Shown here one piece after another: positions 1,816 through 26,120 of a stretch of 30,689 nt of DNA. A model generated the notes under the pieces. The model saw only the letters and a program-made list of their open reading frames with translations. It made no database searches and had not been told where the DNA came from. Origin of the DNA: an uncultured Methanosarcinales archaeon (GTDB taxonomy: Archaea > Nanobdellota > Nanobdellia > Woesearchaeales > GW2011-AR4); the NCBI GenBank assembly GCA_964622655.1, contig CAZUSQ010000001.1, positions 5,427 through 36,115 on the forward strand, given 5' to 3'. How positions within the stretch are numbered: the first letter of the stretch is position 1; the number at the start of each line of letters is the position of its first letter. The translations under genes were made by a program, and so were the position numbers.

Positions 1816-3867
1816 CTATACGATCTTTAAAATTATAGCGCCTTGGTTCTGAAAGACAGGCTGGAACAGCCCGGAGGATGAATAATCCTTTAGCTTTTCA
1901 TTGGAAGCATTTGCCCCGAATTTTCTCACAGTCTGTCCGTCAATGATAACAAAGGAGTAACCCGTTCTTTTTAGCCAATTATAGTTCTCTTCAGCAGTCT
2001 GATTAAATCCATTTTTTTGGTAATTTCTTACCTCATCACACCAATGGCAAGTACTCATATCCATGCCTATAACTGCACCATTATTTACAAAAGTAAATAA
2101 TTTTGAGTTTTTGGGGAGATTATCTTTAATCCAGACATAGCTATTCACCTCATCAAAAGATGTCCAAAAAGCTCCAGGCGGCCAAATTGCTGTATTTACA
2201 GCTATTTTTTGTTGAGTAGATGTAAAGAAAATTCCAATCAGTACAACAACTAAGGTTATTGCTTTACTAATGCCGATTTTTTTAAGGTTGTCCATCAAAA
2301 ACCACATCCCCTCACTTACTAATATGGAAAGTGGTATAACAAACAACATCCAGGCTCTGAATGGTGAGAGTCTGTAAGGATAGATTACGGCATTTACAGC
2401 ATAAAATGTAAATAACAACAATGTTAAGGATATTATAACCCATCTGTAATCTTCAACAATAATTCTTGATAAATAAAATGTTATTGATATCAAAATTAAT
2501 ATCGAAAAGAAAATATATGGTAAAGTAAGCTTCATGTGTTGCTTTAGCATTTTAACTTGTTCAATGTTTCTAGTATCAAATTTATTTGAATTCAAAAAGA
2601 GAAATAGTCCTGTAAGCAATAAAATTATTGAAATAATTTCAGCAAGAGTAATTATATAAAATTTGATATTTGATTTTTCTTTTATTTTAAATGAAATTTT
2701 AAAAAGGTAATGATAAATTGGCACAAGAGATACTATAAGCAAAATTGAAAGTATAAATCCTATTCCAATTGGATTGTTTATCATGTTTACTTCTTTAGCC
2801 CAAACAAAGTCATTCAAATTATATATTCTATCAGCAGTTCCATAAATGCTAAGAACTTCTTTTGTGCCTACCTCAATCCCCAAACCTACTAAAGTCTTAA
2901 TAAAGCCGTATTTCAGAAACATTGGTATCCACCATAATATAAACGACAATAACACACCTACAATTCCTGCCAATGCTTCGTAAAACAAAAGTTTTCGTTG
3001 CAGAATCATTTTAGTTACTAAATATAAAATGAAAAAAAATCCGAAATAAGCGCTATGAGAAGGAGATGAAGTAAGTGTAACCATAATACAAGGTGCTGCT
3101 ACAAAAGCCCATTTTTTGTCGTATTTTATTCTTTCTGCACAATAGAACGATACAAAATACAATGGAACTGTTAAAGCCAATGACCAAATAAAATGACTTA
3201 AATAAGCTGGAACTGATGCCAAAGCAAATGTAGAAAACAATGCCTTATTTCTATTCCCTGTGAATTCTTTTACAAAAAAATAAAAGAAGATAATGCTCAA
3301 AGATATTATTAATGTGTTAAAAAATTTTAAAGTCCAGTAAATTGAGTTATTTGTCTGATGCAGGATACCAAAAAGCATGTCATAGGCTGGCGGATACGGA
3401 TCTAAATAGTGAAAACTGACAGAAGTTGTTTTAAAGACTGTTTTTTCAACTGAGATGTACTTCACACTCAGTGCATGGCTCCAAGAGTCATCATCCTCCA
3501 AAAATGGATATATAAAAGCTCCTTTGTGGTATATGTAGAAAGTAGCCGAGAATAGGAGCAGCATTACTAGTATGTTTATATTGGATTTTGAAATACTTAT
3601 TCTTGGTTTTTTATTAATTATATTTTTATAATTCTTAACGAAGTAAAATATAAGCAACAAAATAGATAAAAATAAAAAAATTCGCCAATCTAGAGGTATG
3701 CGCAGTAAGTTAAAAACAAAACCCAAAAAAATAAAAATTCCTAACCCTACGCCTATTCTCATTAAATTTTTTTCTATGCTGTTTTCAGATTCTTTCACAA
3801 ATCTACATACACCAAAGCCAAAACTCCAAGTGTACAAAAAGAATAAAATTATAGACAAAAATTCCAT
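1816..3867 (-). CDS. Polytopic membrane protein, putative GT-C fold glycosyltransferase (683 aa)
   Basis: Many hydrophobic segments, acidic EDDD motif in an early loop, DPYPPAY motif, soluble C-terminal domain. Lies downstream of a polyprenol-phosphate glycosyltransferase on the same strand. Confidence 0.6.
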   Translation of the reverse strand: MEFLSIILFFLYTWSFGFGVCRFVKESENSIEKNLMRIGVGLGIFIFLGFVFNLLRIPLDWRIFLFLSILLLIFYFVKNYKNIINKKPRISISKSNINILVMLLLFSATFYIYHKGAFIYPFLEDDDSWSHALSVKYISVEKTVFKTTSVSFHYLDPYPPAYDMLFGILHQTNNSIYWTLKFFNTLIISLSIIFFYFFVKEFTGNRNKALFSTFALASVPAYLSHFIWSLALTVPLYFVSFYCAERIKYDKKWAFVAAPCIMVTLTSSPSHSAYFGFFFILYLVTKMILQRKLLFYEALAGIVGVLLSFILWWIPMFLKYGFIKTLVGLGIEVGTKEVLSIYGTADRIYNLNDFVWAKEVNMINNPIGIGFILSILLIVSLVPIYHYLFKISFKIKEKSNIKFYIITLAEIISIILLLTGLFLFLNSNKFDTRNIEQVKMLKQHMKLTLPYIFFSILILISITFYLSRIIVEDYRWVIISLTLLLFTFYAVNAVIYPYRLSPFRAWMLFVIPLSILVSEGMWFLMDNLKKIGISKAITLVVVLIGIFFTSTQQKIAVNTAIWPPGAFWTSFDEVNSYVWIKDNLPKNSKLFTFVNNGAVIGMDMSTCHWCDEVRNYQKNGFNQTAEENYNWLKRTGYSFVIIDGQTVRKFGANASNEKLKDYSSSGLFQPVFQNQGAIILKIV

Positions 3868-9469: not shown

Positions 9470-9718
9470 ATGAATGCAGAACATTGTCAAGTATTATGTC
9501 AGAATTGCGGGAATCATACTTGTTTTCGGAAGCCTAATCATATGCTTGAAGCACATATGTGTTTTGGATGTGATAGGGCCAAAGTTGATGGCATTAAATA
9601 TTTTAGACAAGAACTGCTTAAAAAGATTGATGGAGAAATACATAAATTACCTCAAAATCCTGAAAATGATTTATATATTGAAGGTTTGCAAAAAGCAAAA
9701 GAATTGATTGAGAATTGA
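9470..9718 (+). CDS. Small Cys-rich hypothetical protein (82 aa), probably metal-binding
   Basis: Six Cys in the first 34 aa (CxxxCxxC...C...CxxC) followed by a charged helical tail. ATG start; occupies an otherwise intergenic gap. Confidence 0.6.
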   Translation: MNAEHCQVLCQNCGNHTCFRKPNHMLEAHMCFGCDRAKVDGIKYFRQELLKKIDGEIHKLPQNPENDLYIEGLQKAKELIEN

Positions 9719-9978: not shown

Positions 9979-12246
9979 TTATGTCGTTGACAAAAATTTG
10001 GAAATTTTTGGAGTGTGTCGTTCTTTATTCTTTAATGCCATCATACTTTTTTTAAATAGTAGCATGTATCCTTTCCAGCTCGTAATTATGTTTAGGGGGA
10101 TGATGCATTCCCAAGTGCAATGGCATTTATTATCCCAGATCCATTTTTGAAGATTTCTGGATTCAGATTTAGCCAGTATTTTATTTACATCATAATCGTA
10201 GTCCCTTACATTGCCTAAATTTTTATGGAGTACTTCGCAGGGATAAATATCTCCTTCTTCACTTATTACCACAGACTTTTTTATTGCCTGACAGGGAACT
10301 ACACTTTTGTGTTCTTCCTCTACTTTTATCACTACATCCTTTGCTGCAGATACAAGGAAGTCTTTCAATCTTGAAGAGGGGTACGGATGCCTTTCATTTT
10401 TAATTTTATTAGAGAATTCTTTATACTTTTCCAGAATGCCGCCTTTTCCCAGTGTATCTTTGGGTCTGCCTCTTAAATAAGAGATATCATGTTTTACGCC
10501 CAGCTTATTTTTCACAAAATCATTTAGGGCTAGTATATCATTCTTATTGTGATCCATAATTGTAGTGCCGAGTGTAATATCAAAGTTAGGCCTGTCCATA
10601 AACTCTTTTAGAGCCTCTACAGATTCTATAACATTGTCGTAACTCTGATTTGATACCCTGATGTTATTGTGCGTTTCCTTAAATCCGTCCAAAGATATTA
10701 AAACACTAAAGGCCATATTTGGACAAGAGTCAAGTATATCTTCTGTAATCTGTTTTAGTCTTTTTGGGTTAAGCCCATTTGAATGAAAGCCCATTATTTT
10801 AACATCATTATTATGGTAAAATGTCTTGACTATTTCAACAATATCGTTCCTTATGGTTGGCTCTCCACCTGTCATTGTAAGATAATATATTTTATCCAAA
10901 TTTTTTGAAACTTTTTGTATTTCTTCAAGTGTTAATTCTTTGTTTGGCTTATTCAGATTTTCCATATAAAAACAATGTTTACATTTAAGATTACATTTTG
11001 AAGTAACAAACAAATCAACATAAGGCAACCTTGATGTGAATATCCTTGTTGAATAAATCATAGTATTTAATAGGTCATTAAACTGCGATGTTATTAACTT
11101 TGAAAACCCAAAAATAATGCCTAGACCCATTGAAGTATGCAAAACCATTGATGCGAAAATAGTCGGAAAGAAACTCAATATTCCTGCCCTCTTCGCCATC
11201 CAAAATAAAAATTTTAAATTGGATATGACATAAAGAGCAGAGAGCGAGACTGGAACTACAAAAAACCTAGAGGATAGCAATAAAGGCAGTGTAACCAGAA
11301 TTGATAAAGAAAGGATGGACATCGTGCATTCAAAAAGTGTGCCTGTTCCGCCTGTTGCTTCAAAGCTTTTTTTCTTCAGAAATAGCGGGACATATGTGGC
11401 GGTTCTGTGAAATAGTTTGATTGCCCTGTTTTTCAGTGGTTTGGGAACATGGTCGCATAAAATGTCAGGAGCGATATAATTTTTATAACCATGCCGGATA
11501 ATTTCATATCCAGTATCATATTCTTCCACGCCAGCACCTTTGTATTTAGTGTTAAAACCTCCAACTTCTTCAAATACTTTCTTTTCTATCAAGCCGCATT
11601 CGGAATTAAATGCGGAATAATTATCTACAAATTTCACGCCCTTTTTCCATTTATAGTCATAGCATATCTTCAATGTGCAGAAATTGTCAGAAAATTTCGG
11701 GGAAAAGCATTTTCCAGATTCAACAGCGCCTACAACCTTGATATCTTGGCCAGATTCGTAAACTTCTAGCATTTTTGAGAATGTGTTTTTGTAGACCATC
11801 AAATCGGAATCTACAAAAACGAGAAGGTCTGCTTTTGCATGCTTAGCGCCTACATTTCTTGCATTCGCAACCCCTCTATTGCGCTTTAGCTCTATTACCC
11901 TACACTCGTACTTCTTTAGCTTTTCAAGCGTTGAATCAGTAGAACAGTCATCAACAACTATAATCTCAAAATCCTTAAAATAAGAATTAAAAACCGCATC
12001 CAGACATTTCTCGATAGTGTTTTCACGATTATAGGTGGGTATTATTACTGATAGCTTCGGCTTTAATTCTTGGGTTTCGATTATGGTTTCCTTTATTGCC
12101 GACAGTTTTGGTTTTTCTTCTGGAAACTCATGAGTTCCGTCTGTCTCCAACAGTTTCACTCTTTCTTCATGAGACTCTTGGGTCTCGTTTATTACTAATA
12201 GTTTCAGTTTCCCTTCCGGAGACTCTTTTTTGGTTTCGTTTGTCAT
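9979..12246 (-). CDS. Fusion: repeat N-terminus + GT2 glycosyltransferase + transmembrane segment + radical SAM with Twitch/SPASM-like C-terminus
   Basis: GT2: SVIIPTYNR, VVDDCSTD, RNVGA, FVDSD. Hydrophobic linker. Radical SAM: CNLKCKHC, TGGEP, SLDG. C-terminal C-x15-GDIYPC...CHCTWEC. Confidence 0.88.
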   Translation of the reverse strand: MTNETKKESPEGKLKLLVINETQESHEERVKLLETDGTHEFPEEKPKLSAIKETIIETQELKPKLSVIIPTYNRENTIEKCLDAVFNSYFKDFEIIVVDDCSTDSTLEKLKKYECRVIELKRNRGVANARNVGAKHAKADLLVFVDSDLMVYKNTFSKMLEVYESGQDIKVVGAVESGKCFSPKFSDNFCTLKICYDYKWKKGVKFVDNYSAFNSECGLIEKKVFEEVGGFNTKYKGAGVEEYDTGYEIIRHGYKNYIAPDILCDHVPKPLKNRAIKLFHRTATYVPLFLKKKSFEATGGTGTLFECTMSILSLSILVTLPLLLSSRFFVVPVSLSALYVISNLKFLFWMAKRAGILSFFPTIFASMVLHTSMGLGIIFGFSKLITSQFNDLLNTMIYSTRIFTSRLPYVDLFVTSKCNLKCKHCFYMENLNKPNKELTLEEIQKVSKNLDKIYYLTMTGGEPTIRNDIVEIVKTFYHNNDVKIMGFHSNGLNPKRLKQITEDILDSCPNMAFSVLISLDGFKETHNNIRVSNQSYDNVIESVEALKEFMDRPNFDITLGTTIMDHNKNDILALNDFVKNKLGVKHDISYLRGRPKDTLGKGGILEKYKEFSNKIKNERHPYPSSRLKDFLVSAAKDVVIKVEEEHKSVVPCQAIKKSVVISEEGDIYPCEVLHKNLGNVRDYDYDVNKILAKSESRNLQKWIWDNKCHCTWECIIPLNIITSWKGYMLLFKKSMMALKNKERHTPKISKFLSTT
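12051..12246 (-). repeat. Four degenerate ~16-codon tandem repeats encoding the N-terminus of the GT2-radical SAM fusion
   Basis: ETKKESPEGKLKLL / ETQESHEERVKLL / GTHEFPEEKPKLS / ETIIETQELKPKLS. DNA similarity is visible, e.g. gagactctt..ggt.tcgttt occurs twice. Confidence 0.6.
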
Positions 12247-12656: not shown

Positions 12657-12794
12657 ATGAGATGTAATTTCTGCAAACAACTGATGGAAAAGATAGAACA
12701 TAACGATCCCAAAATTGATACGTATAAATGTAACTATTGTCATTACTTGATAGATATTTCGGTTAAAGACCGGCAAGCCACAGAAGATAACTAA
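12657..12794 (+). CDS. 45-aa zinc-ribbon microprotein (CxxC-x18-CxxC), not in the supplied ORF track
   Basis: My translation: MRCNFCKQLMEKIEHNDPKIDTYKCNYCHYLIDISVKDRQATEDN*. ATG 12657, TAA 12792-12794; sits in a 590-bp gap. Confidence 0.7.
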   Translation: MRCNFCKQLMEKIEHNDPKIDTYKCNYCHYLIDISVKDRQATEDN

Positions 12795-12836: not shown

Positions 12837-14570
12837 TCATTCTATATTATAAACAAATATAGAATAACCAATTTTCTCTATAGGCTCGTATTTTTTAAGC
12901 CAATTATAACATGTTCTATTGAGCAGATGCGCGTTTTGAAGGTTGGTTATGCTGATTGCTATCAAGCCCTTTCTCTTAGAACAGTCTTCAGATACATTAG
13001 GTGGTGAAATAACAACAGATGTATAGTTATTTTGCCATGGCTGGAAGTAAGGGGAAGGCAAGTATTCATAAGAAATGCCGTAGTATCTAGGGTCTATAGA
13101 GCCCCAGTAGCTTAATTTGATTTTATCAATTTTATTTTTTTCCATGAATTTTTTTAGCCCAAATAAGTCCTGGCCTTGGTCTATATTTGAGCCGACTACT
13201 ATCTTGTATGCATTATTTGGCCCTCCGCCCAAGATGTTTATATAAGAAAGATAATATGGGGCAATTAAAATTGTGGAAACTGCATAGGAAATAAGTAAGA
13301 TGGGTATTGCTGCATTGAATATATTTTTTCCTTTTATATTGGCTGGAGCATTAACTATGTTGCTTGCTAAGACTGAAAGAAAGGGGTATATTGTCAATAT
13401 ATGGTTTATACCAGATGTTTTGCTTGTAATAGAGAATATTATAAATATAAAAATTATTGGAAGTATAAGAGACGCATTTGTTATAAAATCCTTTTTTGGC
13501 AATTTTTTATGCAAAAATAAAAGTAAGATAAGCATCAATAAAAATGAAAAATTCGTTTTTATGATGAAGGTAAGGATGCCATAATACCACACTTGATTGT
13601 CGACAATTTCTCCAAGCATAAAACCAGTTTTGTCTTGTGTTGATGCGTAAAAGATGTGCCCAATCATACCTACATAAGTGGACGCTGGCAATGGAACCTT
13701 ATCATATATAAAGAGCAAATAATCCGAAATGATTGGTATTTTGCTTAGTTCCTCTCTTGCTTTTTCCGAATAATACACTGGAACTAGACTGCCTTTAATT
13801 GTTCCAAACTGGAACATATGGAATGCCCATATTAAAACAAAACCGATAATGAATATAACTAAAAGATTTTTGACTAGAGTTTTTGATTTTAGATTACTCT
13901 CCTTTTCGTACACAGCTATAGCTCCAATAACTATAAACAAAGGATATAACATTATTGCAGTTATTTTTGAAAGCTGGGCAAGGCCAAAAAAAATGCCAGC
14001 CAATAAAAGATTCTTCTTAGACGGTTTCTTGATGAGGCGCCAGAAATAATAGGTGGCTATAAAAATCATCATAGCGACAGTAAAGTCTGCAACTGCTAAA
14101 CTAGAATAACCTATAATCGCTGGATTAAACGAATAAAGAAGTAAGGCAACAATGCCACTTTTTTTGCCATAAAGTTCAGTTGCCCACTTAAGTATAAAAA
14201 AGGCAAGTATAACCGAGAGCAAAACAAATGGTATTCTTGATATGAATAAAATAAATTTAGGATCATAGCTGGATTCAAATAAAACTTCTTTTCCGATTTC
14301 CCAAGCCTTGTCATTCTGCCATATTTTCTCATCGAATTTTAAGGGTATCAATGGTATGCTATTTATGTAGTAAGACAGGGGTGGATGGTCTGATGCCACC
14401 ATACGCCTTATATTGCCTGTGCTGAAAATTGCTTTTCCTTCCCCAATAAAAAATAATTCGTCCCATACGGTAGAATTGTGTAGTGCACTCCACACGCCCT
14501 GCACAATAATAGAAAAAAGAAGCAAAGTAATAATAATTAGTTGTGATTTTGAATATTTTACAGATGTCAT
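12837..14570 (-). CDS. GT-C glycosyltransferase, ArnT/PMT-like (GT83/GT39-like)
   Basis: VWDE acidic motif after TM1, DHPPL, multiple TMs, LAQLSK, C-terminal soluble domain. Confidence 0.85.
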   Translation of the reverse strand: MTSVKYSKSQLIIITLLLFSIIVQGVWSALHNSTVWDELFFIGEGKAIFSTGNIRRMVASDHPPLSYYINSIPLIPLKFDEKIWQNDKAWEIGKEVLFESSYDPKFILFISRIPFVLLSVILAFFILKWATELYGKKSGIVALLLYSFNPAIIGYSSLAVADFTVAMMIFIATYYFWRLIKKPSKKNLLLAGIFFGLAQLSKITAIMLYPLFIVIGAIAVYEKESNLKSKTLVKNLLVIFIIGFVLIWAFHMFQFGTIKGSLVPVYYSEKAREELSKIPIISDYLLFIYDKVPLPASTYVGMIGHIFYASTQDKTGFMLGEIVDNQVWYYGILTFIIKTNFSFLLMLILLLFLHKKLPKKDFITNASLILPIIFIFIIFSITSKTSGINHILTIYPFLSVLASNIVNAPANIKGKNIFNAAIPILLISYAVSTILIAPYYLSYINILGGGPNNAYKIVVGSNIDQGQDLFGLKKFMEKNKIDKIKLSYWGSIDPRYYGISYEYLPSPYFQPWQNNYTSVVISPPNVSEDCSKRKGLIAISITNLQNAHLLNRTCYNWLKKYEPIEKIGYSIFVYNIE

Positions 14571-14633: not shown

Positions 14634-15515
14634 ATGAAAATTGTTGTAACTATTCCGGCATTTAACGAAGAAAAAAGCATTAGAGAGGTTATAACTAATG
14701 TTAAGAAAGTAATGACATCAAATAAATATAACTATAAAATTCTAGTAATTGATGATGGCAGCAAAGATAGGACAGCAGAGATTGCAAAAAAATCTGGTGC
14801 TATTGTTTACTCTCATCCAAAAAACTATGGATTAGCTGATACATTCAAAACAGAGGTATCAAAATCACTTGAGCTTAAACCAGATGTTATAGTTCATATA
14901 GATGCAGACTCTCAATATAAACCAAAAGACATACCAAAATTGATAGAAGAAATCAAAAAAGGCTATGACCTTGTATTAGGGAGCAGATTTAAAGGAAAAA
15001 TAGAAGAAATGCAATTAATTAAAAGGCTTGGTAATATAGCCTTTTCAAAAGTAGTATCCCAAATAACAGGTTTACAAATATCAGATGCCCAAACTGGTTT
15101 CAGGGCTTTTACAAAAGAGGTTGCTAAAAGTATACCGATAACATCAAATCACACATACACTCAAGAGCAGATTATTAGGGCTATGAAGCAAAGATTAAAG
15201 ATAAAAGAGGTCCCAATTTACTTTGCAAAAAGACATGGAACAAGTAGATTAATAACAAATACTTTTGGATATGCCATTAAGGCTTGGATTAACATAATAA
15301 GAATTTATAGAGACTACGAGCCATTAAAATTTTTTGGGATTCTTGGAACTCTTATTTTTGGTTTGGGTTTTTTTATTGGACTTTATCTGATATATCTACA
15401 TTTTACAACCGGTATTGTTGGGCATTTTGCTTTGATAATGCTTGATATCTTAATCCTAAGCATTGGATTGCAAATTATAATATTTGGATTTCTTGCTGAT
15501 ATGAACAGAAAATAA
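14634..15515 (+). CDS. Polyprenol-phosphate glycosyltransferase-like GT2 with two C-terminal TMs
   Basis: IPAFNEEKSI, IDDGSKDRT, HIDADSQY, VLGSRF, DAQTGFRAF, then a C-terminal hydrophobic hairpin. Confidence 0.88.
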   Translation: MKIVVTIPAFNEEKSIREVITNVKKVMTSNKYNYKILVIDDGSKDRTAEIAKKSGAIVYSHPKNYGLADTFKTEVSKSLELKPDVIVHIDADSQYKPKDIPKLIEEIKKGYDLVLGSRFKGKIEEMQLIKRLGNIAFSKVVSQITGLQISDAQTGFRAFTKEVAKSIPITSNHTYTQEQIIRAMKQRLKIKEVPIYFAKRHGTSRLITNTFGYAIKAWINIIRIYRDYEPLKFFGILGTLIFGLGFFIGLYLIYLHFTTGIVGHFALIMLDILILSIGLQIIIFGFLADMNRK

Positions 15516-16296: not shown

Positions 16297-16424
16297 AGTC
16301 TAATTTACATGTTAGGATACTACAATAACAATAAAACAAAAAATACATTACCGAATGTTGTATATAGCATTTTTAAAATATTTTTTTGATATTGATTCTT
16401 AGGAGATAGTTGTCAATACATATC

Positions 16425-16434
16425 TTTTTAAATA
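16425..16434 (+). promoter_or_regulatory. TATA box TTTTTAAATA for the WbpB/D/E-like operon
   Basis: Lies 21-30 bp before the ATG at 16455, supporting that start over the ORF-track start at 16410. Confidence 0.55.
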
Positions 16435-16454
16435 GAATATTCCTACCTTGCAAC

Positions 16455-17489
16455 ATGAAATTTGGTATTATTGGGTGTGGTTATTGGGGACCAAATTTAA
16501 TAAGAAACTTTAACAGCATTGCAGGAGCAGAGGTGGTTTATTGTGCAGATATAGACGAGAATAGGCTAAGCCATATTAAAAGTATATATCCAAAAATGTT
16601 AGTTACAAAGGATTACAATGAAATACTCGATAAAAAAGAGGTGGATGCTATAATAATTGCTACTCCTGTAGAAACTCATTATAAAATTGCTAAAGACGCC
16701 TTAAATGCAGATAAGCATGTTTTAGTTGAAAAGCCTATTACAAACAATTCTGAAGATGCAATTGGACTTATAAAAATAGCGGAAAAAAACAACAAAGTTT
16801 TGATGGTTGATCATACATTTGAATATAGTGCTCCTGTAAGAAAAATAAAAGAGATGATAAAAAACAATGAGTTAGGTAAAATATTCACAATTGACATGAT
16901 AAGGGTTAATTTAGGCTTATTCCAAAAAAAGGTCAATGTCATCTGGGATTTGGCACCGCATGATATTTCAATGTTACTTTACTATCTTGATGAAATGCCA
17001 TTGACTGTAAGGGCGTTTGGTGAGTCCTATATCAGAGAAGGTATTGAAGATGATGCGCATTTGAGTTTGACATTTAGAAATAAAATAATGGCCAATATGC
17101 ATGTGTCGTGGCTTGATCCTTGTAAAATTAGAAGAACGACAATTGTAGGCAATAAAAAGATGCTAGTTTTTGATGACACTTTACAAGAAGAAAAAATAAG
17201 AATATATGACAAAGGGGTTACAATAGAAAAAAACAGCATACCAAAACAACCTTATTACGATACTTATGAGGAATGGGTTTTGACTTACAGGTCAGGAGAT
17301 ATTCATATGCCAAAGATAGAAAATAAAGAGCCATTAAATGTTATGGCAGGACATTTTGTGAATTGCATAAAGAGCAACAAAAAGCCTTTAACAGATGGTT
17401 ATTCTGGATTAAGGATTGTAAAAGTTATTGAGGCTGCGCAAAAATCATTAAAAGATAACGGCAATAAAGTTATTATAAAAAATGATTAG
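16455..17489 (+). CDS. Gfo/Idh/MocA oxidoreductase, WbpB/WlbA-like nucleotide-sugar 3-dehydrogenase
   Basis: GIIGCGYWG, IATP..TH, HVLVEKP, WDLAPHD, VSWL.P.K.R. Start moved to the ATG at 16455. Confidence 0.85.
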   Translation: MKFGIIGCGYWGPNLIRNFNSIAGAEVVYCADIDENRLSHIKSIYPKMLVTKDYNEILDKKEVDAIIIATPVETHYKIAKDALNADKHVLVEKPITNNSEDAIGLIKIAEKNNKVLMVDHTFEYSAPVRKIKEMIKNNELGKIFTIDMIRVNLGLFQKKVNVIWDLAPHDISMLLYYLDEMPLTVRAFGESYIREGIEDDAHLSLTFRNKIMANMHVSWLDPCKIRRTTIVGNKKMLVFDDTLQEEKIRIYDKGVTIEKNSIPKQPYYDTYEEWVLTYRSGDIHMPKIENKEPLNVMAGHFVNCIKSNKKPLTDGYSGLRIVKVIEAAQKSLKDNGNKVIIKND

Positions 17490-17952
17490 TAAAGATGTTA
17501 AACTCGGCGATAACGTAAAGATATACCATAAAGAATTGGTTAATTTGTATGGTTGTGAAATAGGCAATAATACAAAAATAGCCTCTTTTGTTGAAATTCA
17601 AAAAAATGTTAGAATTGGCAAAAATTGCAAAATAGAAGCGTTTGCCTTTATACCTGAAGGCGTCAAAATTGAAGACGAAGTTTTTATTGGACCACATGCG
17701 TGCTTTACAAATGACAAGTTGCCTAGAGCCACTAACAAAGATGGAAGTGTTAAAACAGAAAAAGACTGGAAAATAATAAAAACATTAGTAAAGAAAAGAG
17801 CAAGCATAGGGGCTAATGCAACTATTATATGTGGAATAACAATAGGAAAAAATTCAATAATAGGTGCAGGTTCTGTTGTAACAAAGGATGTTCCACCTGA
17901 TTCTATTGTTGTAGGGAGTCCTGCTAAGATTATTGGCAAAGTAAAAGATTGA
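17482..17952 (+). CDS. Hexapeptide-repeat N-acetyltransferase, WbpD/WlbB-like
   Basis: Left-handed beta-helix repeats, FTND..PRA, ASIGANATI, GAGSVVTKDVP, GSPAK. Confidence 0.9.
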   Translation: MISKDVKLGDNVKIYHKELVNLYGCEIGNNTKIASFVEIQKNVRIGKNCKIEAFAFIPEGVKIEDEVFIGPHACFTNDKLPRATNKDGSVKTEKDWKIIKTLVKKRASIGANATIICGITIGKNSIIGAGSVVTKDVPPDSIVVGSPAKIIGKVKD

Positions 17953-17956
17953 TAAA

Positions 17957-19051
17957 ATGATAAAATTTGTTGATTTGAAGGCACAATACAATTCAATAAA
18001 GGACGAGATAGATAATGCGGTTCACGAAGTCGTAGGATCCACAACTTTTATTTTAGGAGAACATCTAAGGAATTTTGAAAAGGAATTTGCGGATTTCTGC
18101 AATGCGAAATATGCAGTTGGATTAAATTCAGGGACATCTGCTCTTCACCTTGCATTGTTAGCTAAGGGTATTAAAGAAGGTGATGAGGTAATAACAACTC
18201 CAAATACATTCATAGCAACATGTGAAGCAATATCCTACACAGGAGCTACTCCAAAGCTAGTTGACATAGATACTGAAACATGCAATATGGATCCAAAAAA
18301 GCTTGAAAATGCAATAACTCCAAAGACAAAAGCTGTTATTCCTGTGCATCTCTACGGTCAGCCAGCTGATATGAAACAGATAATGGAAATAGCCAAAAAG
18401 CATAATATAACTGTTATTGAAGATGCATGCCAAGCCCATGGTGCAGAACATTACAGAAAAAAAGTCCCTATATCAGAGATAGGTTGCTTTAGTTTCTATC
18501 CACCAAAGAACCTTGGTGCATATGGAGAAGGTGGTTCTATTGTGACAAACGAGAAGGAAGTTAACGAGATTGTAAGAATGTATAGAGATCATGGACAGAT
18601 AAGAAGGCATGTCCATAAATACATAGGTTACAACTACAGATTTGATGAAATTCAAGCTGCTATTTTAAGAGTTAAATTAAATCATCTCAATAGATGGATA
18701 GAAATGAGAAGAAAAAATGCTAAAATTTATGATGAAATGTTGAAAGATTGTGATGCGGCAATTCCTATAGAAAAAGATTATAACAAGCATGTTTATCATT
18801 TATACGTAATAAGAGTAAAAAACAGGCAAAAATTAATTGAGCATTTAAGTTCAAACAATATCCAAACAGGAATACATTACCCAACTCCAATACATCTTCA
18901 GGAAGCCTACTCACATCTTAACTATAAAAAGGGGAGTTTTCCAATTGCTGAGCAATATGCTAATGAAATTTTATCACTCCCTATGTACCCTGAACTTAAA
19001 GAAGAAGAGATAAGTCTAGTTGCAAAATCTATAAAGAAATTCTTAAAATGA
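17957..19051 (+). CDS. DegT-family PLP aminotransferase, WbpE/WlbC-like
   Basis: FVDLKAQY, NSGTSAL, PVHLYGQ, IEDACQAHGA, SFYPPKNLGAYGEGG, HYP.PIH.Q. Confidence 0.92.
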   Translation: MIKFVDLKAQYNSIKDEIDNAVHEVVGSTTFILGEHLRNFEKEFADFCNAKYAVGLNSGTSALHLALLAKGIKEGDEVITTPNTFIATCEAISYTGATPKLVDIDTETCNMDPKKLENAITPKTKAVIPVHLYGQPADMKQIMEIAKKHNITVIEDACQAHGAEHYRKKVPISEIGCFSFYPPKNLGAYGEGGSIVTNEKEVNEIVRMYRDHGQIRRHVHKYIGYNYRFDEIQAAILRVKLNHLNRWIEMRRKNAKIYDEMLKDCDAAIPIEKDYNKHVYHLYVIRVKNRQKLIEHLSSNNIQTGIHYPTPIHLQEAYSHLNYKKGSFPIAEQYANEILSLPMYPELKEEEISLVAKSIKKFLK

Positions 19052-22741: not shown

Positions 22742-23848
22742 ATGAAAATTCTGGTTTTGATGAAGAGATTTGGTACAAATAAAGATTTAGTTATGCAAAA
22801 TTTTGGTAGGCAAATAAGATTATTTGAGCAGCTTAAAGAATTTGGGCATGATATCGATTTTCTTTGCTTGGACTATAAAAAGTTTGAATCAAAAAAAATT
22901 AAAAAAAATAATATTAATTATTATGTTGAGCCATTTAGTTTAAGTAAATTTAATGCATATTTTAAAAAATTAAACTTGCTTTTAAACAAAAAAAAATATG
23001 ATATTCTAGTTGCTTCAACGAGTCCTATTTTGGGTATTATAGGCTATTTTTACTCAAGAAAACATAAAATCAAATTGCTATATGACTTGCAAGATAGCTT
23101 TAATGTTTACACTGAATATAAGGTGCCATTGGTAAGCATAATTGATAAATACATAACTAAAAGAGCTGATATTGTCATTTGTGTGAGTGAAACTTTAAAA
23201 AAAAGAATTAAAAAATTTAGAAAAAAGCCAACTTATGTAATACAAAATGGAATTGAAAAAAAATTATTCAAACCGCTGGACAAAATAAAATGTAGAAAAA
23301 AATTGAGATTGCCTCTAGATGCAAAGATGATTGTTTATATAGGACATATCACAAAATTAAAAGGTTTTGATATTCTCCTAGCTGCTTTTGATAAAGTAAA
23401 GAATGTTTATCCAAATTCCTACTTGCTTGTAAGCGGACAAATTGATAGAGATATAAGCATAAAGCATAAGAATGTGTTGTTTGAAGCTTTGCCAAAAAGG
23501 GATCAAGTTGTAGTAGCAATAAATGCAAGTGATGTTGCTGTTATCCCGGATCCGAAAAATGATTTCACAGAGTACTCTTTTCCCTATAAGTTAGTTGAGT
23601 ATATGGCATGTAAAGTTCCTATTGTGGCATCAAGCATAGGCGATAAGTCATTATTATTAAAAAAATATGACAACAGCCTATGCAAACCAGATGATGCAAT
23701 TGATTTAAGTAAAAAGATTATGTCTAAATTAATAAGCCCAAAAAAAGCTGATTACAGCAAAATATTAAAAAAGCTTACATGGGAGTATTTGGCAATAAAA
23801 TTAAACAAATTGATTATAAAATATGGGAACAGCAAGAAGGATAACTAG
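22742..23848 (+). CDS. GT4 (GT-B) glycosyltransferase
   Basis: CVSETL, VIQNGI, YIGHI..LKG, FPYKLVEYMACKVPIVAS. Confidence 0.85.
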   Translation: MKILVLMKRFGTNKDLVMQNFGRQIRLFEQLKEFGHDIDFLCLDYKKFESKKIKKNNINYYVEPFSLSKFNAYFKKLNLLLNKKKYDILVASTSPILGIIGYFYSRKHKIKLLYDLQDSFNVYTEYKVPLVSIIDKYITKRADIVICVSETLKKRIKKFRKKPTYVIQNGIEKKLFKPLDKIKCRKKLRLPLDAKMIVYIGHITKLKGFDILLAAFDKVKNVYPNSYLLVSGQIDRDISIKHKNVLFEALPKRDQVVVAINASDVAVIPDPKNDFTEYSFPYKLVEYMACKVPIVASSIGDKSLLLKKYDNSLCKPDDAIDLSKKIMSKLISPKKADYSKILKKLTWEYLAIKLNKLIIKYGNSKKDN

Positions 23849-25241
23849 CAATTTTTTGAGTTTAACTGCATCTGAAGTGATTTCAAAAATTATACAACTC
23901 CTTATTTTTATTTATATAGCTAGGATATTTGGAAAATCTGAGTTTGGAAAATTTGGATTTGCACTGGCATTCTCATTTATAGTTATTATAATTGCTGACT
24001 TTGGATTTAATACTTTATTAGTGCGAGAGATTAGTAGAAATAAAAAGGAAGTTGAGAAATATATTTCAAATGTATTGACAATCAAAATTTTTCTTTCAGG
24101 ATTGACATTCGTTGCTACATTTCTTTATCTTAATTTAGTAAATTATACAAAAGATATTAAAATAATAACCTATTTAATGGTTTTATTCGCTGTGCTACAA
24201 TCTTTTACAGATCTATTTTATTCTGTTTTTAGAGCATTTGAGAGGATGTATTATGATTCTACAATAAAAGTTTTGCGTATGGTTGTATTATCAGCCCTTA
24301 TATTTATTTCTATAGTTTATAATGCAAATCTTATTATTGTGACATTGATGTTTTCAATTACTGAGGTGTTTGTGCTCGTTATTTCTTTAATACTTTATAT
24401 TAAAAATTTTGCAAATATCTCAATAAGATTCAACATAGAATTTATAAGGCATATTATTAGAAAATCCATATTTTTTTGTCTGTCGCTTATTTTTGCTTCA
24501 CTTCTTTACATTGGCATAGTACTATTACAAAACTTCAAAGGTTCTGACGAAGTTGGAGTTTATACAGCAGCCTTTAATCTACTTTTTGGTATTGTGTATA
24601 TTCCTTTAATGTTCTCCAATGCCGTTTTTCCTGTTTTTTCTAGATACTTTATTACAGATAAGTCTTTACTTAAATTTGTATACAGAAAATCATTCCAGTA
24701 CATGTTGATACTGGGTCTTCCAATTTCTTTGGGGATTTTTACTTATGCTAGAAATATAATACTCTTATTGTACGAGTCCAATTATGTAGCTTCAATAACC
24801 CCGCTTAAAATACTCAGTTGGATGGTTGTATTGAGATTTATAAATATCACATCTGGAACAGTACTATCAGCGATAGATAAGCAGGGCTCAAGGGTTTTCA
24901 GTCAAGGCACAGTAGCTACAATATACGTAATATTGAACATATTGCTCATACCAAAATTTGGATTTATAGGGCTATCTATAGCTACGATAATTTCTGAAAT
25001 TTTATTTCTTGTAATGTATTCCTATTTTATAATAAAACATAGCTTCAAGATAAACTTTATAGAATCTTCTATTAAACCAATTATAGCATCTATTTTAATG
25101 ACTTTGATAATAATTAATATCTCAGACTTATTTCTGGGATTTATAGTAGGTGCTATATCTTATGCTGTTATTTTGTTCACAATAAAAGCTTTTAACAAAG
25201 AAGATAAAGAATTACTAATGAAAGTTATAAGAAATGACTAG
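23823..25241 (+). CDS. wzx: Wzx/MATE-like oligosaccharide flippase
   Basis: About 12-14 TMs, YIARIFG..EFG.F, ADFGF..LLVREIS, EVGVYTAA, LLIPKFGFIG.SIAT. Confidence 0.9.
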   Translation: MGTARRITSNFLSLTASEVISKIIQLLIFIYIARIFGKSEFGKFGFALAFSFIVIIIADFGFNTLLVREISRNKKEVEKYISNVLTIKIFLSGLTFVATFLYLNLVNYTKDIKIITYLMVLFAVLQSFTDLFYSVFRAFERMYYDSTIKVLRMVVLSALIFISIVYNANLIIVTLMFSITEVFVLVISLILYIKNFANISIRFNIEFIRHIIRKSIFFCLSLIFASLLYIGIVLLQNFKGSDEVGVYTAAFNLLFGIVYIPLMFSNAVFPVFSRYFITDKSLLKFVYRKSFQYMLILGLPISLGIFTYARNIILLLYESNYVASITPLKILSWMVVLRFINITSGTVLSAIDKQGSRVFSQGTVATIYVILNILLIPKFGFIGLSIATIISEILFLVMYSYFIIKHSFKINFIESSIKPIIASILMTLIIINISDLFLGFIVGAISYAVILFTIKAFNKEDKELLMKVIRND

Positions 25242-25301: not shown

Positions 25302-26120
25302 ATGGTCGAGTCTATTAAAGAATTGTGGAAAATATGTTATGAGCGCCAGTATGTTTACAGGGCTTGGTATAATAAATATGTCAGCAAAGTTTCTATTTAT
25401 GTGACTTGGTTGCTTTTGCACACGCCAGTAACTCCTAATCAAGTCACTATTTTTGAATTTTTCTTAGTGATTTTGGGTTCTATATTTTTGTTTTTAGGAA
25501 AAATTGAGTATATATTTATTGGAATGTTAATTATTCAATTTACTAATTTACTTGATTGTGTTGATGGTGGAATTGCCAGATATAGGAAAAAATCAAGCCT
25601 TGTTGGATTGCATTTAGAGGAGGTGTACCATCATCTGGTCTCTCATCTTATATTTTTCCCTCTGGCTTTTGGAATATTTTTGCAGACAGGCTGGAAATCG
25701 GTGTTAATATTTGGCTTTATATGCTCTATATTCTCGAAGTCAATAATAATGCCAACAATGTTCTCTTCCATAATTATGAGCAGATTAAGCGATAACACAC
25801 CAAAGCATCTAAAACAGAACTCTAAAAGAAGTTCAAATAAGATTAATTTACAAGGCAGCGATATTGGTAAAAAATTGAGTGATATGTATGACAGATTTAA
25901 ATATCTGTGGGCTGTGCCGACAAATGTCAATTTGACGATAATTTCTATAATAGAATTGATAAATAAGAATTATAGCTTTGTGCAAAATTATGCTTTATTT
26001 TATTGGTTTTTGGTAATATACAGCATTGCAGTTATCCTGATGCAAGTTATATCATTCGTTGTTCAGTATAGGGGAAGGGCTGCAGAAAATTACTATAGGC
26101 GCCTTTTTACCAATAAATAG
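25302..26120 (+). CDS. CDP-alcohol phosphatidyltransferase family protein with a variant motif
   Basis: TPVTPNQVT and DCVDGGIAR..KSS..GLHLEEVYH (DxxDGxxAR...G motif), multiple TMs. Confidence 0.85.
   Translation: MVESIKELWKICYERQYVYRAWYNKYVSKVSIYVTWLLLHTPVTPNQVTIFEFFLVILGSIFLFLGKIEYIFIGMLIIQFTNLLDCVDGGIARYRKKSSLVGLHLEEVYHHLVSHLIFFPLAFGIFLQTGWKSVLIFGFICSIFSKSIIMPTMFSSIIMSRLSDNTPKHLKQNSKRSSNKINLQGSDIGKKLSDMYDRFKYLWAVPTNVNLTIISIIELINKNYSFVQNYALFYWFLVIYSIAVILMQVISFVVQYRGRAAENYYRRLFTNK

Follow-up and report, generated by a model that had tools for sequence, protein, structure and literature searches.

A GT2 glycosyltransferase joined through a membrane segment to a Twitch-type radical SAM domain in a glycan gene cluster of an uncultured archaeon

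Why should one gene encode a glycosyltransferase of family 2 (GT2), a membrane segment and a radical S-adenosylmethionine (SAM) enzyme? The question is raised by a stretch of 30,689 nucleotides (hereafter ‘the window’) from an uncultured Methanosarcinales archaeon, placed in the Woesearchaeales (Nanobdellota) by GTDB (assembly GCA_964622655.1, contig CAZUSQ010000001.1, positions 5,427 to 36,115). A first-pass annotation of its sequence had pointed to one uninterrupted open reading frame (ORF) carrying these parts, and such a single ORF of 755 amino acids (aa) is indeed found at positions 9979–12246 of the minus strand. Many uncultured archaea and bacteria have the two catalytic parts as well, either in one gene or in two adjacent ones. 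The answer proposed here is that the protein is a bifunctional membrane-anchored enzyme of cell-surface glycan assembly, which would add a sugar to a lipid-linked glycan and tailor a sugar of that glycan by radical chemistry. In this full form the proposal stands in even balance between holding and failing; the narrower claim of a bifunctional enzyme of glycan assembly is a probable one.

Architecture, conservation and gene fusion

The features of the fusion gene are as follows (coordinates in the window, strand, description).

9979–12246, minus: whole ORF, 755 aa, fusion of a GT2, a membrane segment and a Twitch radical SAM enzyme (P0001), from the ORF translation, Pfam and an AlphaFold2 (AF2) model
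12070–12246, minus: N-terminal Glu/Lys-rich extension, residues 1–59, predicted disordered (predicted local distance difference test, pLDDT, <50) and missing in homologues
11437–12060, minus: GT2 catalytic domain (GT-A fold), residues 63–270, with DD at nucleotides 11947–11952 and DSD at 11803–11811, from Pfam, conservation and Foldseek
11371–11436, minus: amphipathic interface helix, residues 271–292, with conserved R281, from DSSP and the family profile
11092–11337, minus: membrane segment, residues 304–385, from the AF2 model and the family profile
11032–11091, minus: fusion junction and linker helix, residues 386–405, from the gene boundary of split relatives and from spanning contigs
10312–11025, minus: radical SAM core, residues 408–645, with CxxxCxxC at nucleotides 10972–10995 and GGEP at 10858–10869, from PF04055, invariant columns and VIA-align
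10012–10311, minus: Twitch-type auxiliary-cluster domain, residues 646–745, from Pfam SPASM and from family and profile alignments

Pfam recognizes Glycos_transf_2 (PF00535) at residues 66–177 (121.6 bits for a cut-off of 23.3), with further GT2 models (PF10111 and PF13641) extending to residue 270, Radical_SAM (PF04055) at residues 414–574 (65.4 bits, cut-off 29.5) and SPASM at residues 652–710 (23.4 bits, cut-off 21.5). In the translation, the GT2 part contains VVDD (D99–D100) and DSD (D146–D148), the radical SAM part C418-x3-C422-x2-C425 (nucleotides 10995–10972) and GGEP (residues 460–463), and the C-terminal part CQA (C652), GDIYPC (C670) and CHCTWEC (C708, C710 and C714). Every motif read in the first pass is therefore present, and the anatomy then proposed, namely a GT2, a membrane anchor and a radical SAM/Twitch enzyme, holds by Pfam, by these motifs and by four invariant cysteines spaced as in BtrN. 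The AF2 model, built on 53 homologues, has a mean pLDDT of 87.5 and a predicted template modelling score of 0.79, with disorder limited to residues 1–59 and 744–755; the radical SAM part modelled by itself reaches a pLDDT of 94.2. Helices are modelled at residues 271–292 (amphipathic) and at residues 304–324, 330–354 and 356–404 (hydrophobic, the last continuing into the linker), so that the ‘roughly three to four helices’ of the first-pass annotation become three hydrophobic ones.

The N-terminal tail of 59 residues has no counterpart in homologues, which begin at about residue 60–65, and a search for tandem repeats in it gave a weak 12-nucleotide, 2-copy match and no real repeat. The gene might also start at residue 30 or 33, where GTG and TTG codons lie in frame. 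A scan for Sigma-70 promoters gave matches at chance level and does not apply to an archaeon.

Conservation covers the catalytic residues of both parts. Among 53 fused homologues (22–47% identity), the invariant positions are C418, C422 and C425, G460-G461-E462, C652, C670, E671, C708 and C710, together with D146, G125 and R130; D100 and D148 are nearly invariant. C714, the fifth cysteine of the Twitch domain, is present in most family members. As to the integrity of the junction, for which the first-pass annotation had looked to read coverage, four groundwater runs of one study provide Logan contigs that agree with the window to ≥99% and contain zero indels, and two of these contigs (10952–12049 and 10608–11111) cross the boundary between the membrane segment and the radical SAM domain. 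These assembled contigs confirm continuity, but the four runs may be the source samples of the assembly, and they are thus to be counted as a second assembly and not as independent samples.

The fusion gene is real and not a chance product. Faulty assembly or sequencing, or a recent read-through of two genes with loss of function, can be imagined because in the closest genome relatives the two genes overlap by ATGA, so that an error of one base would join them. Such an origin is nevertheless extremely improbable: the contigs assembled independently from the four runs carry no indel at the junction, P0003 and P0004 (47% identity) and about 60 more clusters are fused at the identical point, and the catalytic residues are all intact.

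The distribution of fused and split forms was followed in several searches. A word-based search returned seven full-length fused homologues (34–47% identity), and an exhaustive HMMER search covered 1.8 billion representatives. Its best 150 hits, sorted by architecture, comprise about 62 clusters of fused proteins (558–785 aa) and about 63 clusters of stand-alone radical SAM proteins (about 360 aa); stand-alone proteins made of the GT2 and the transmembrane (TM) segment are also among these 150 (P0129 and P0207). The halves are adjacent genes in Candidatus Pyrohabitans jungbluthii (Hydrothermarchaeota) and in metagenome-assembled genomes (MAGs) of Pseudomonadota, Nitrospiraceae, Clostridia and Pyrinomonadaceae. 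The possibility, raised at the first pass, that orthologs are always separate genes is thus half right, since they are often separate and adjacent, but these fused clusters show that they are not always so. A related-locus search from a 10-sequence alignment relied on patterns in the GT2 N-terminus, so that most of its 80 loci are unrelated GT2 genes, and among them the pair was found only at L018–L021 and L024. Among 150 other genomes sampled from the taxonomic order of the window, 7 have a radical SAM homologue at E ≤ 1e-40, fused in none of the 7, and a GT2+TM gene lies directly upstream of it in at least three (G042, G075 and G004). In the closest split relative, G042 (45% identity), the two genes overlap by ATGA at the fusion point, the end of the GT2 gene corresponding to residue 388 of the fusion and the start of the radical SAM gene to about residue 389. 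Judging from these sequences, a single-base change at this overlap would yield a fusion of the window type.

In a maximum-likelihood tree built from 140 radical SAM domains, the fused and the stand-alone forms are interleaved. At least 19 changes of state follow from the well-supported branches by themselves, and 35 changes are needed by parsimony. The neighbours of the window protein are P0002, P0003 and P0004, all fused, followed by the split forms P0133, P0138 and the G042 pair. Such repeated fusion and fission of neighbouring genes is strong evidence, of a phylogenetic kind, that the GT2+TM and radical SAM halves act as one functional unit. When the halves were folded as two chains, the score was 0.00, a value that carries no weight either way.

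The membrane-anchored GT2 and the radical SAM domain

The N-terminal domain belongs to the GT2 family by its profile score, by D99–D100 and the DxD motif and by its GT-A fold. Foldseek comparison of the AF2 model with the PDB retrieves PcManGT, TarP, CvHAS and WrtF (E 1e-12 to 1e-14). Against the Swiss-Prot models, the GT2+TM module (residues 59–388) matches AglE, Methanococcus voltae AglC, AglG, ExoA and RfbN, with TM-scores by hit of 0.69–0.76, and further PgaC/IcaA, NodC and MftF; these are membrane-anchored GT2s that extend lipid-linked glycans or make polymers. AglG, AglE and AglI of Haloferax volcanii, AglC of M. voltae, ExoA and RfbN are GT2s that extend dolichol- or undecaprenol-linked glycans, and they share with the fusion the GT-A fold, the DxD motif and C-terminal membrane helices. 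These enzymes also resemble it in lying in surface-glycan clusters beside an AglJ-type synthase, but unlike the fusion they neither carry nor pair with a radical SAM domain. In NCBIfam, the GT2 matches EpsD, TuaG and MftF types, and related proteins score 55–71 bits for the AglG equivalog, whose cut-off is 440.

A different kinship, with the synthases that load a single sugar onto polyprenyl phosphate, finds less echo in these comparisons. ArnC, DPM1 and GtrB are absent from the 30 best Swiss-Prot structural matches, a database that holds many ArnC entries, and the polyprenyl-phosphate sugar synthase models (DPMS, GtrB, ArnC and AglJ) are not in the 25 best NCBIfam families for the fusion; DPMS, ArnC and GtrB do match its GT-A core, at lower rank.

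The membrane segment is composed of a TM hairpin (residues 307–324 and 328–350), a Lys/Arg loop (352–354) and a third hydrophobic helix (356–382). In the preceding interface helix (271–292), hydrophobic residues alternate with Lys/Arg, and position 281 is Lys or Arg in 87% of sequences. On average over the family, Lys/Arg-rich stretches lie before TM1 (291–293), between TM2 and helix 3 (352–354) and after helix 3 (383–406), the loop between TM1 and TM2 (325–327) is poor in Lys/Arg, and helix 3 bears a polar stripe at positions 361, 366, 369 and 370. Stand-alone radical SAM partners have a short amphipathic start and neither a signal peptide nor a TM helix. The segment is probably a TM hairpin followed by a third helix that is re-entrant or lies in the membrane plane, both catalytic domains being cytoplasmic, as the Lys/Arg pattern and the stand-alone partners devoid of signal peptide and TM helix suggest.

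The second catalytic domain belongs to the radical SAM superfamily, with PF04055 above its cut-off and CxxxCxxC and GGE invariant. The seven-cysteine SPASM motif (CX9-15GX4C...CX2CX5CX3C...C) is not complete in its C-terminal part, which has only C652-x12-G-x4-C670 and C708-x-C710-x3-C714. This truncated SPASM-like domain, with four invariant cysteines in BtrN-like spacing as ligands for a single predicted auxiliary cluster, has the features of the Twitch subfamily, and its sequence corresponds to a single-cluster layout with full Cys ligation. The family profile aligns the Twitch stretch with CteB, BtrN and anSME, and places the invariant C670-E671 on C276-D277 of anSME, where Asp277 is reportedly the proposed general base of dehydrogenation. 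A PDB search with the Twitch part as a single sequence gave a chance hit only, the family profile being needed for real matches.

How far the fold tells the reaction was approached by VIA-align comparison of the radical SAM model with about 48,000 PDB representatives. SkfB comes first (Z 24.6) and the sugar decarboxylase BlsE second (Z 22.4), followed by SuiB (Z 21.5), anSME (Z 19.6), MoaA (Z 19.3), DesII (Z 16.9), GDGT-MAS (Z 16.2) and BtrN (Z 15.1); among Swiss-Prot models, the matches are AhbD, Gms, AhbC, AlbA, SkfB and NirJ. The first-pass annotation had compared the domain with BtrN and NeoN, which stands as an analogy rather than as a clear kinship: BtrN matches the Twitch part only (E 5.8e-5 with the profile) and ranks below peptide, heme and MoaA enzymes. 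BtrN, anSME and BlsE share with the fusion a radical SAM core followed by a Cys-rich auxiliary-cluster domain. They differ from it in being soluble and in acting on an aminocyclitol, on protein Ser/Cys and on a nucleoside sugar, respectively; sequence similarity is marginal (E 0.07–0.1 for the Twitch part), and the fifth cysteine and the CxC spacing are specific to the fusion family. No NCBIfam equivalog lies near its cut-off for the radical SAM domain, which by sequence is a member of the broad SPASM/Twitch group without a specific functional relative.

Two other readings take their start from these matches. As the best radical SAM matches in sequence and fold (SkfB, SuiB and CteB) are peptide maturases and MftF is among the structural matches of the GT2, the radical SAM domain might cross-link or epimerise a peptide, as in sactipeptides or ranthipeptides, which the GT2 would glycosylate as happens in glycocins or mycofactocin; one locus (L008) has a 42-aa ORF ahead of the fusion, and in another (L115) the pair has PqqD and ScmC-like genes at a distance of 4 kb. 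Mycofactocin likewise combines a membrane GT2 (MftF) and a SPASM-type radical SAM enzyme (MftC) in one pathway. MftC, however, acts on the MftA peptide with MftB, the window has no mftA, mftB, mftD or mftE genes, and scores are far below cut-offs (MftF, 73.6 bits for 280; MftC, 69.7 for 265 with a stand-alone homologue). In addition, the protein has no RRE/PqqD-like domain and its membrane segment runs straight into the radical SAM core, no precursor-peptide gene is conserved across loci, and the neighbourhoods are glycan clusters. Peptide chemistry is thus a very unlikely explanation.

The second reading reverses the order of the two steps. The radical SAM domain would first modify a nucleotide sugar, as DesII or BtrN might suggest, and the fused GT2 would transfer the labile keto or deoxy product by channelling. 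The sugar radical SAM enzymes closest in fold (BlsE, DesII and BtrN, with the Z values above) have soluble substrates, namely sugars linked to a nucleoside or an aminocyclitol, channelling would suit the fusion and the tight coupling of the genes, and no evidence separates this order from the favoured one. The membrane tether and the membrane GT2 partner in all split forms are, on the other hand, simpler to understand with a membrane-bound substrate, and we hold the reversed order to be rather improbable.

Gene neighbourhoods and known systems

The window is a 30-kb glycan cluster. It encodes glycosyltransferases of the GT4 and GT2 families, two DegT aminotransferases, nucleotidyltransferases, a sugar C-methyltransferase, other methyltransferases and 4,6-dehydratase-type enzymes. 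The neighbours discussed below are the following.

12837–14570, minus: GT-C membrane glycosyltransferase (PMT_2, 577 aa) directly upstream of the fusion (Pfam PF13231, 52.5 bits)
14634–15515, plus, divergent from the GT-C gene: AglJ/ArnC-type polyprenyl-phosphate sugar synthase (GT2, 293 aa), from NCBIfam
23823–25241, plus: Wzx-type flippase of the glycan cluster (Pfam Polysacc_synt, 125.9 bits)
25302–26120: CDP-alcohol phosphatidyltransferase

The NCBIfam scores of the 293-aa GT2 are 153.6 bits for AglJ, 127 bits for dolichyl-phosphate hexose transferase and 88.9 bits for ArnC. Neighbours were counted over 21 non-redundant loci carrying the family, the window included. A clear GT-C-type neighbour (PMT_2 or DUF6541) is found in at least 8 of the 21 (the window, L009, L018, L019, L024, L108, L110 and L115) and a weak one in L010, L021 and L109. 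An ArnC/AglJ-type synthase is present in 7 loci (the window, L009, L010, L021, L109, L111 and L114), a B12-binding radical SAM enzyme in L009, L012, L111, L112, L115 and L117, and a Wzx-type flippase in L010 and, directly adjacent to the fusion, in L012 and L017. In the Nitrospiraceae locus, the pair is followed by GlmU and GlmS.

The recurrence of GT-C genes brings in a reading after the model of ArnC and ArnD. The GT2 would itself charge polyprenyl phosphate with one sugar, and the radical SAM domain would convert the lipid-linked monosaccharide into the donor of the GT-C enzyme, for example as an oxygen-independent counterpart of the DprE1/DprE2 epimerisation. GT-C enzymes of the PMT_2 type use polyprenyl-phosphate monosaccharide donors, as established for ArnT, PMTs and Emb/Aft; they are the most recurrent neighbours of the family, and synthases of this sort typically have C-terminal membrane helices like those of the GT2. 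The window, however, already encodes a synthase dedicated to this task, of AglJ/ArnC type, beside its GT-C gene, such synthases recur in 6 other loci, and the GT2 of the fusion goes best with EpsD, TuaG, MftF and AglG types, ArnC, DPM1 and GtrB lying outside the top structures. This reading is judged unlikely. The three-component systems of extracytoplasmic glycosylation themselves (ArnC/ArnD/ArnT, GtrA/GtrB/GtrC, PpgS with a GT-C, PgfS with a GT-C) resemble the window in pairing an ArnC/AglJ-type synthase with a PMT_2-type GT-C, but a second membrane GT2 and a radical SAM enzyme are both missing from them. As is proposed here, the Arn pathway tailors its sugar on the lipid carrier, on the cytoplasmic side and ahead of flipping, although by hydrolytic deformylation instead of the radical chemistry suggested for the fusion.

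Chemistry on a lipid head group has also to be weighed. In the systems of HpnI/HpnK/HpnJ (hopanoid cyclitol ether) and Cds (calditol synthase), a sugar is first attached to a membrane-bound lipid by a GT2 and afterwards remodelled by a radical SAM enzyme (PMC13459092). With ring contraction on a lipid-bound sugar as precedent, the GT2 of the fusion could glycosylate an archaeol, diether or tetraether lipid and the radical SAM domain could remodel the ring, for example by contraction to a cyclitol or a calditol-like head group; homologues show matches to Glyco_transf_21 (ceramide-glucosyltransferase type), and GDGT-MAS and Gms are among the nearest radical SAM matches. Several features speak against it. 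HpnJ is defined by a B12-binding domain, whereas the family has a Twitch domain and no B12 domain according to Pfam; HpnJ (TIGR03471) is not among the NCBIfam matches, and scores against the HpnJ, HpnH and PTO1314 models are at background level. Even the B12 radical SAM neighbours at other loci score 133–152 bits for an HpnJ cut-off of 577.6. The context is one of glycan assembly and not of lipid synthesis, the neighbours being flippases, GT-C enzymes and enzymes of nucleoside diphosphate sugars, and the family is also found in bacteria with ordinary lipids. Head-group chemistry accordingly appears improbable.

Further observations concern the window and the related loci. Within the window, genes for a Gfo/Idh/MocA oxidoreductase, a hexapeptide acetyltransferase and a DegT aminotransferase stand in a row at 16410–19051 (plus), which we take to be a set typical of the synthesis of 2,3-diacetamido-2,3-dideoxy sugars (WbpB/WbpD/WbpE-like). 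An 82-aa Cys/His-rich ORF (CQVLCQNCGNHTC...CFGC) at 9470–9718 (plus) is convergent with the 3′ end of the fusion gene, and the spacer on its other side holds a 45-aa mini-ORF at 12657–12794 (plus) with CxxC...CxxC (MRCNFCKQ...CNYCHY), probably a zinc-ribbon mini-protein. At 1816–3867 (minus), a 683-aa protein without a Pfam or NCBIfam match is weakly similar in BLAST (E 4e-4) to the L009 protein of the PMT_2 type; by sequence, it may be a second, divergent GT-C-like membrane protein.

Among the related loci, DUF6541 membrane proteins adjoin the split pair in L108 (2702–4537) and L110 (10100–11692), both of the same order as the window, where other loci carry PMT_2. This replacement suggests that DUF6541 is a GT-C-like transferase. 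Around fused homologues, L117 (1–17250) and L010 (1–12080) hold unusually many radical SAM genes, at least nine of them in L117, B12-binding and MiaB-like ones included, and an arylsulfotransferase besides. Phosphonate-type genes (a phosphoenolpyruvate mutase–cytidylyltransferase fusion, a thiamine pyrophosphate-dependent decarboxylase and an Fe-alcohol dehydrogenase) lie beside the fused homologue of L009 (1–6068), together with a CDP-alcohol phosphatidyltransferase, which the window encodes too, and a B12 radical SAM enzyme whose nearest models are P-methyltransferases. In L115 (14824–15910), the ScmC-like and PqqD genes, about 4 kb from the closest split pair, are followed by more radical SAM genes and may constitute a separate peptide-modification cluster.

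A possible pathway and its meaning for surface glycans

The pathway favoured here would begin with the AglJ/ArnC-type enzyme loading a sugar onto polyprenyl or dolichyl phosphate. The GT2 domain, presumed to be cytoplasmic, inverting and DxD/metal-dependent, would use a nucleotide sugar to extend, in the manner of AglG, AglE, AglC and ExoA, a sugar or short glycan carried on polyprenyl (dolichyl) phosphate in the inner leaflet. The TM hairpin and the in-plane helix would anchor the protein and tether the Twitch radical SAM domain on the cytoplasmic side, where it would cleave SAM at the CxxxCxxC cluster and take a hydrogen atom from the lipid-linked sugar. The Cys-ligated auxiliary cluster, as electron outlet, and the invariant Glu671 would complete the tailoring, the likeliest reaction being a two-electron oxidation to a keto sugar, or epimerisation via a keto sugar. 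The tailored lipid-linked glycan would finally be flipped and passed to the GT-C transferase of the family. From the fold, the motifs and the gene context we infer that the substrate is lipid-linked, which of the two steps comes first and what type of reaction takes place. The first-pass annotation had already proposed that glycosyl transfer is coupled to a radical tailoring step on a lipid-linked or surface glycan; this is the reading that best fits the cluster, the AglE-like fold and the neighbours, although these do not point to a specific reaction.

Several points weigh against this proposal. The GT-C gene and the fusion of the window do not form one transcription unit, a 590-bp spacer with a mini-ORF on the opposite strand lying between them, and at about half of the loci no GT-C gene lies within reach. 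The match to AglE, AglG and ExoA is a resemblance of fold class, at 15–19% identity and with NCBIfam scores of the AglG type far below cut-offs. Peptide maturases (SkfB, SuiB and CteB), heme enzymes (AhbD and NirJ), lipid enzymes (GDGT-MAS and Gms) and MoaA all resemble the radical SAM domain to about the same degree; with similarity spread so evenly, the reaction type rests on one aligned acidic residue and on cluster ligation. Three hydrophobic helices could formally put the radical SAM domain outside the cell. Finally, the family is known from sequences and models alone.

As to novelty, the first pass had considered that the architecture might belong to an already characterised family. None was found: Pfam, NCBIfam and the PDB contain no curated family or solved structure with the GT2–radical SAM architecture or the split pair, cluster names and the ESM Atlas give only generic names for the family, and the literature search returned nothing on GT2–radical SAM fusions or on radical SAM enzymes acting on lipid-linked or undecaprenyl sugars. 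The parts are of known kinds; what is new is that they are obligate partners, with the implication that glycan intermediates bound to the membrane undergo radical chemistry. To our knowledge, the well-studied tailoring of surface-glycan sugars takes place entirely on nucleotide sugars or by hydrolytic or redox enzymes (ArnD, DprE1/E2). That this is the first radical SAM family with sugars on polyprenyl phosphate as substrates, working at the membrane surface in physical union with the glycosyltransferase that makes these substrates and feeding a GT-C enzyme, is advanced as a tentative idea, on the doubtful side.

The repeated fusion and fission offers a natural ‘Rosetta stone’ case, which can serve to annotate the stand-alone radical SAM proteins of about 360 aa that now bear generic names. 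The split pairs in MAGs of Clostridia and Pseudomonadota may be easier to express than the archaeal fusion and provide a testable entry point. If the proposal is true, lipid-linked intermediates would themselves be substrates of radical chemistry, which would represent a new reaction class in glycan biosynthesis and an oxygen-free route to keto, epimerised, deoxy and ring-rearranged sugars after loading on the lipid carrier. It would also explain the rows of radical SAM genes in glycan clusters of uncultured anaerobes, and the surface glycans of many of these organisms (DPANN, the candidate phyla radiation (CPR) and other bacteria) would hold sugars that are not predicted by the known nucleotide-sugar pathways.

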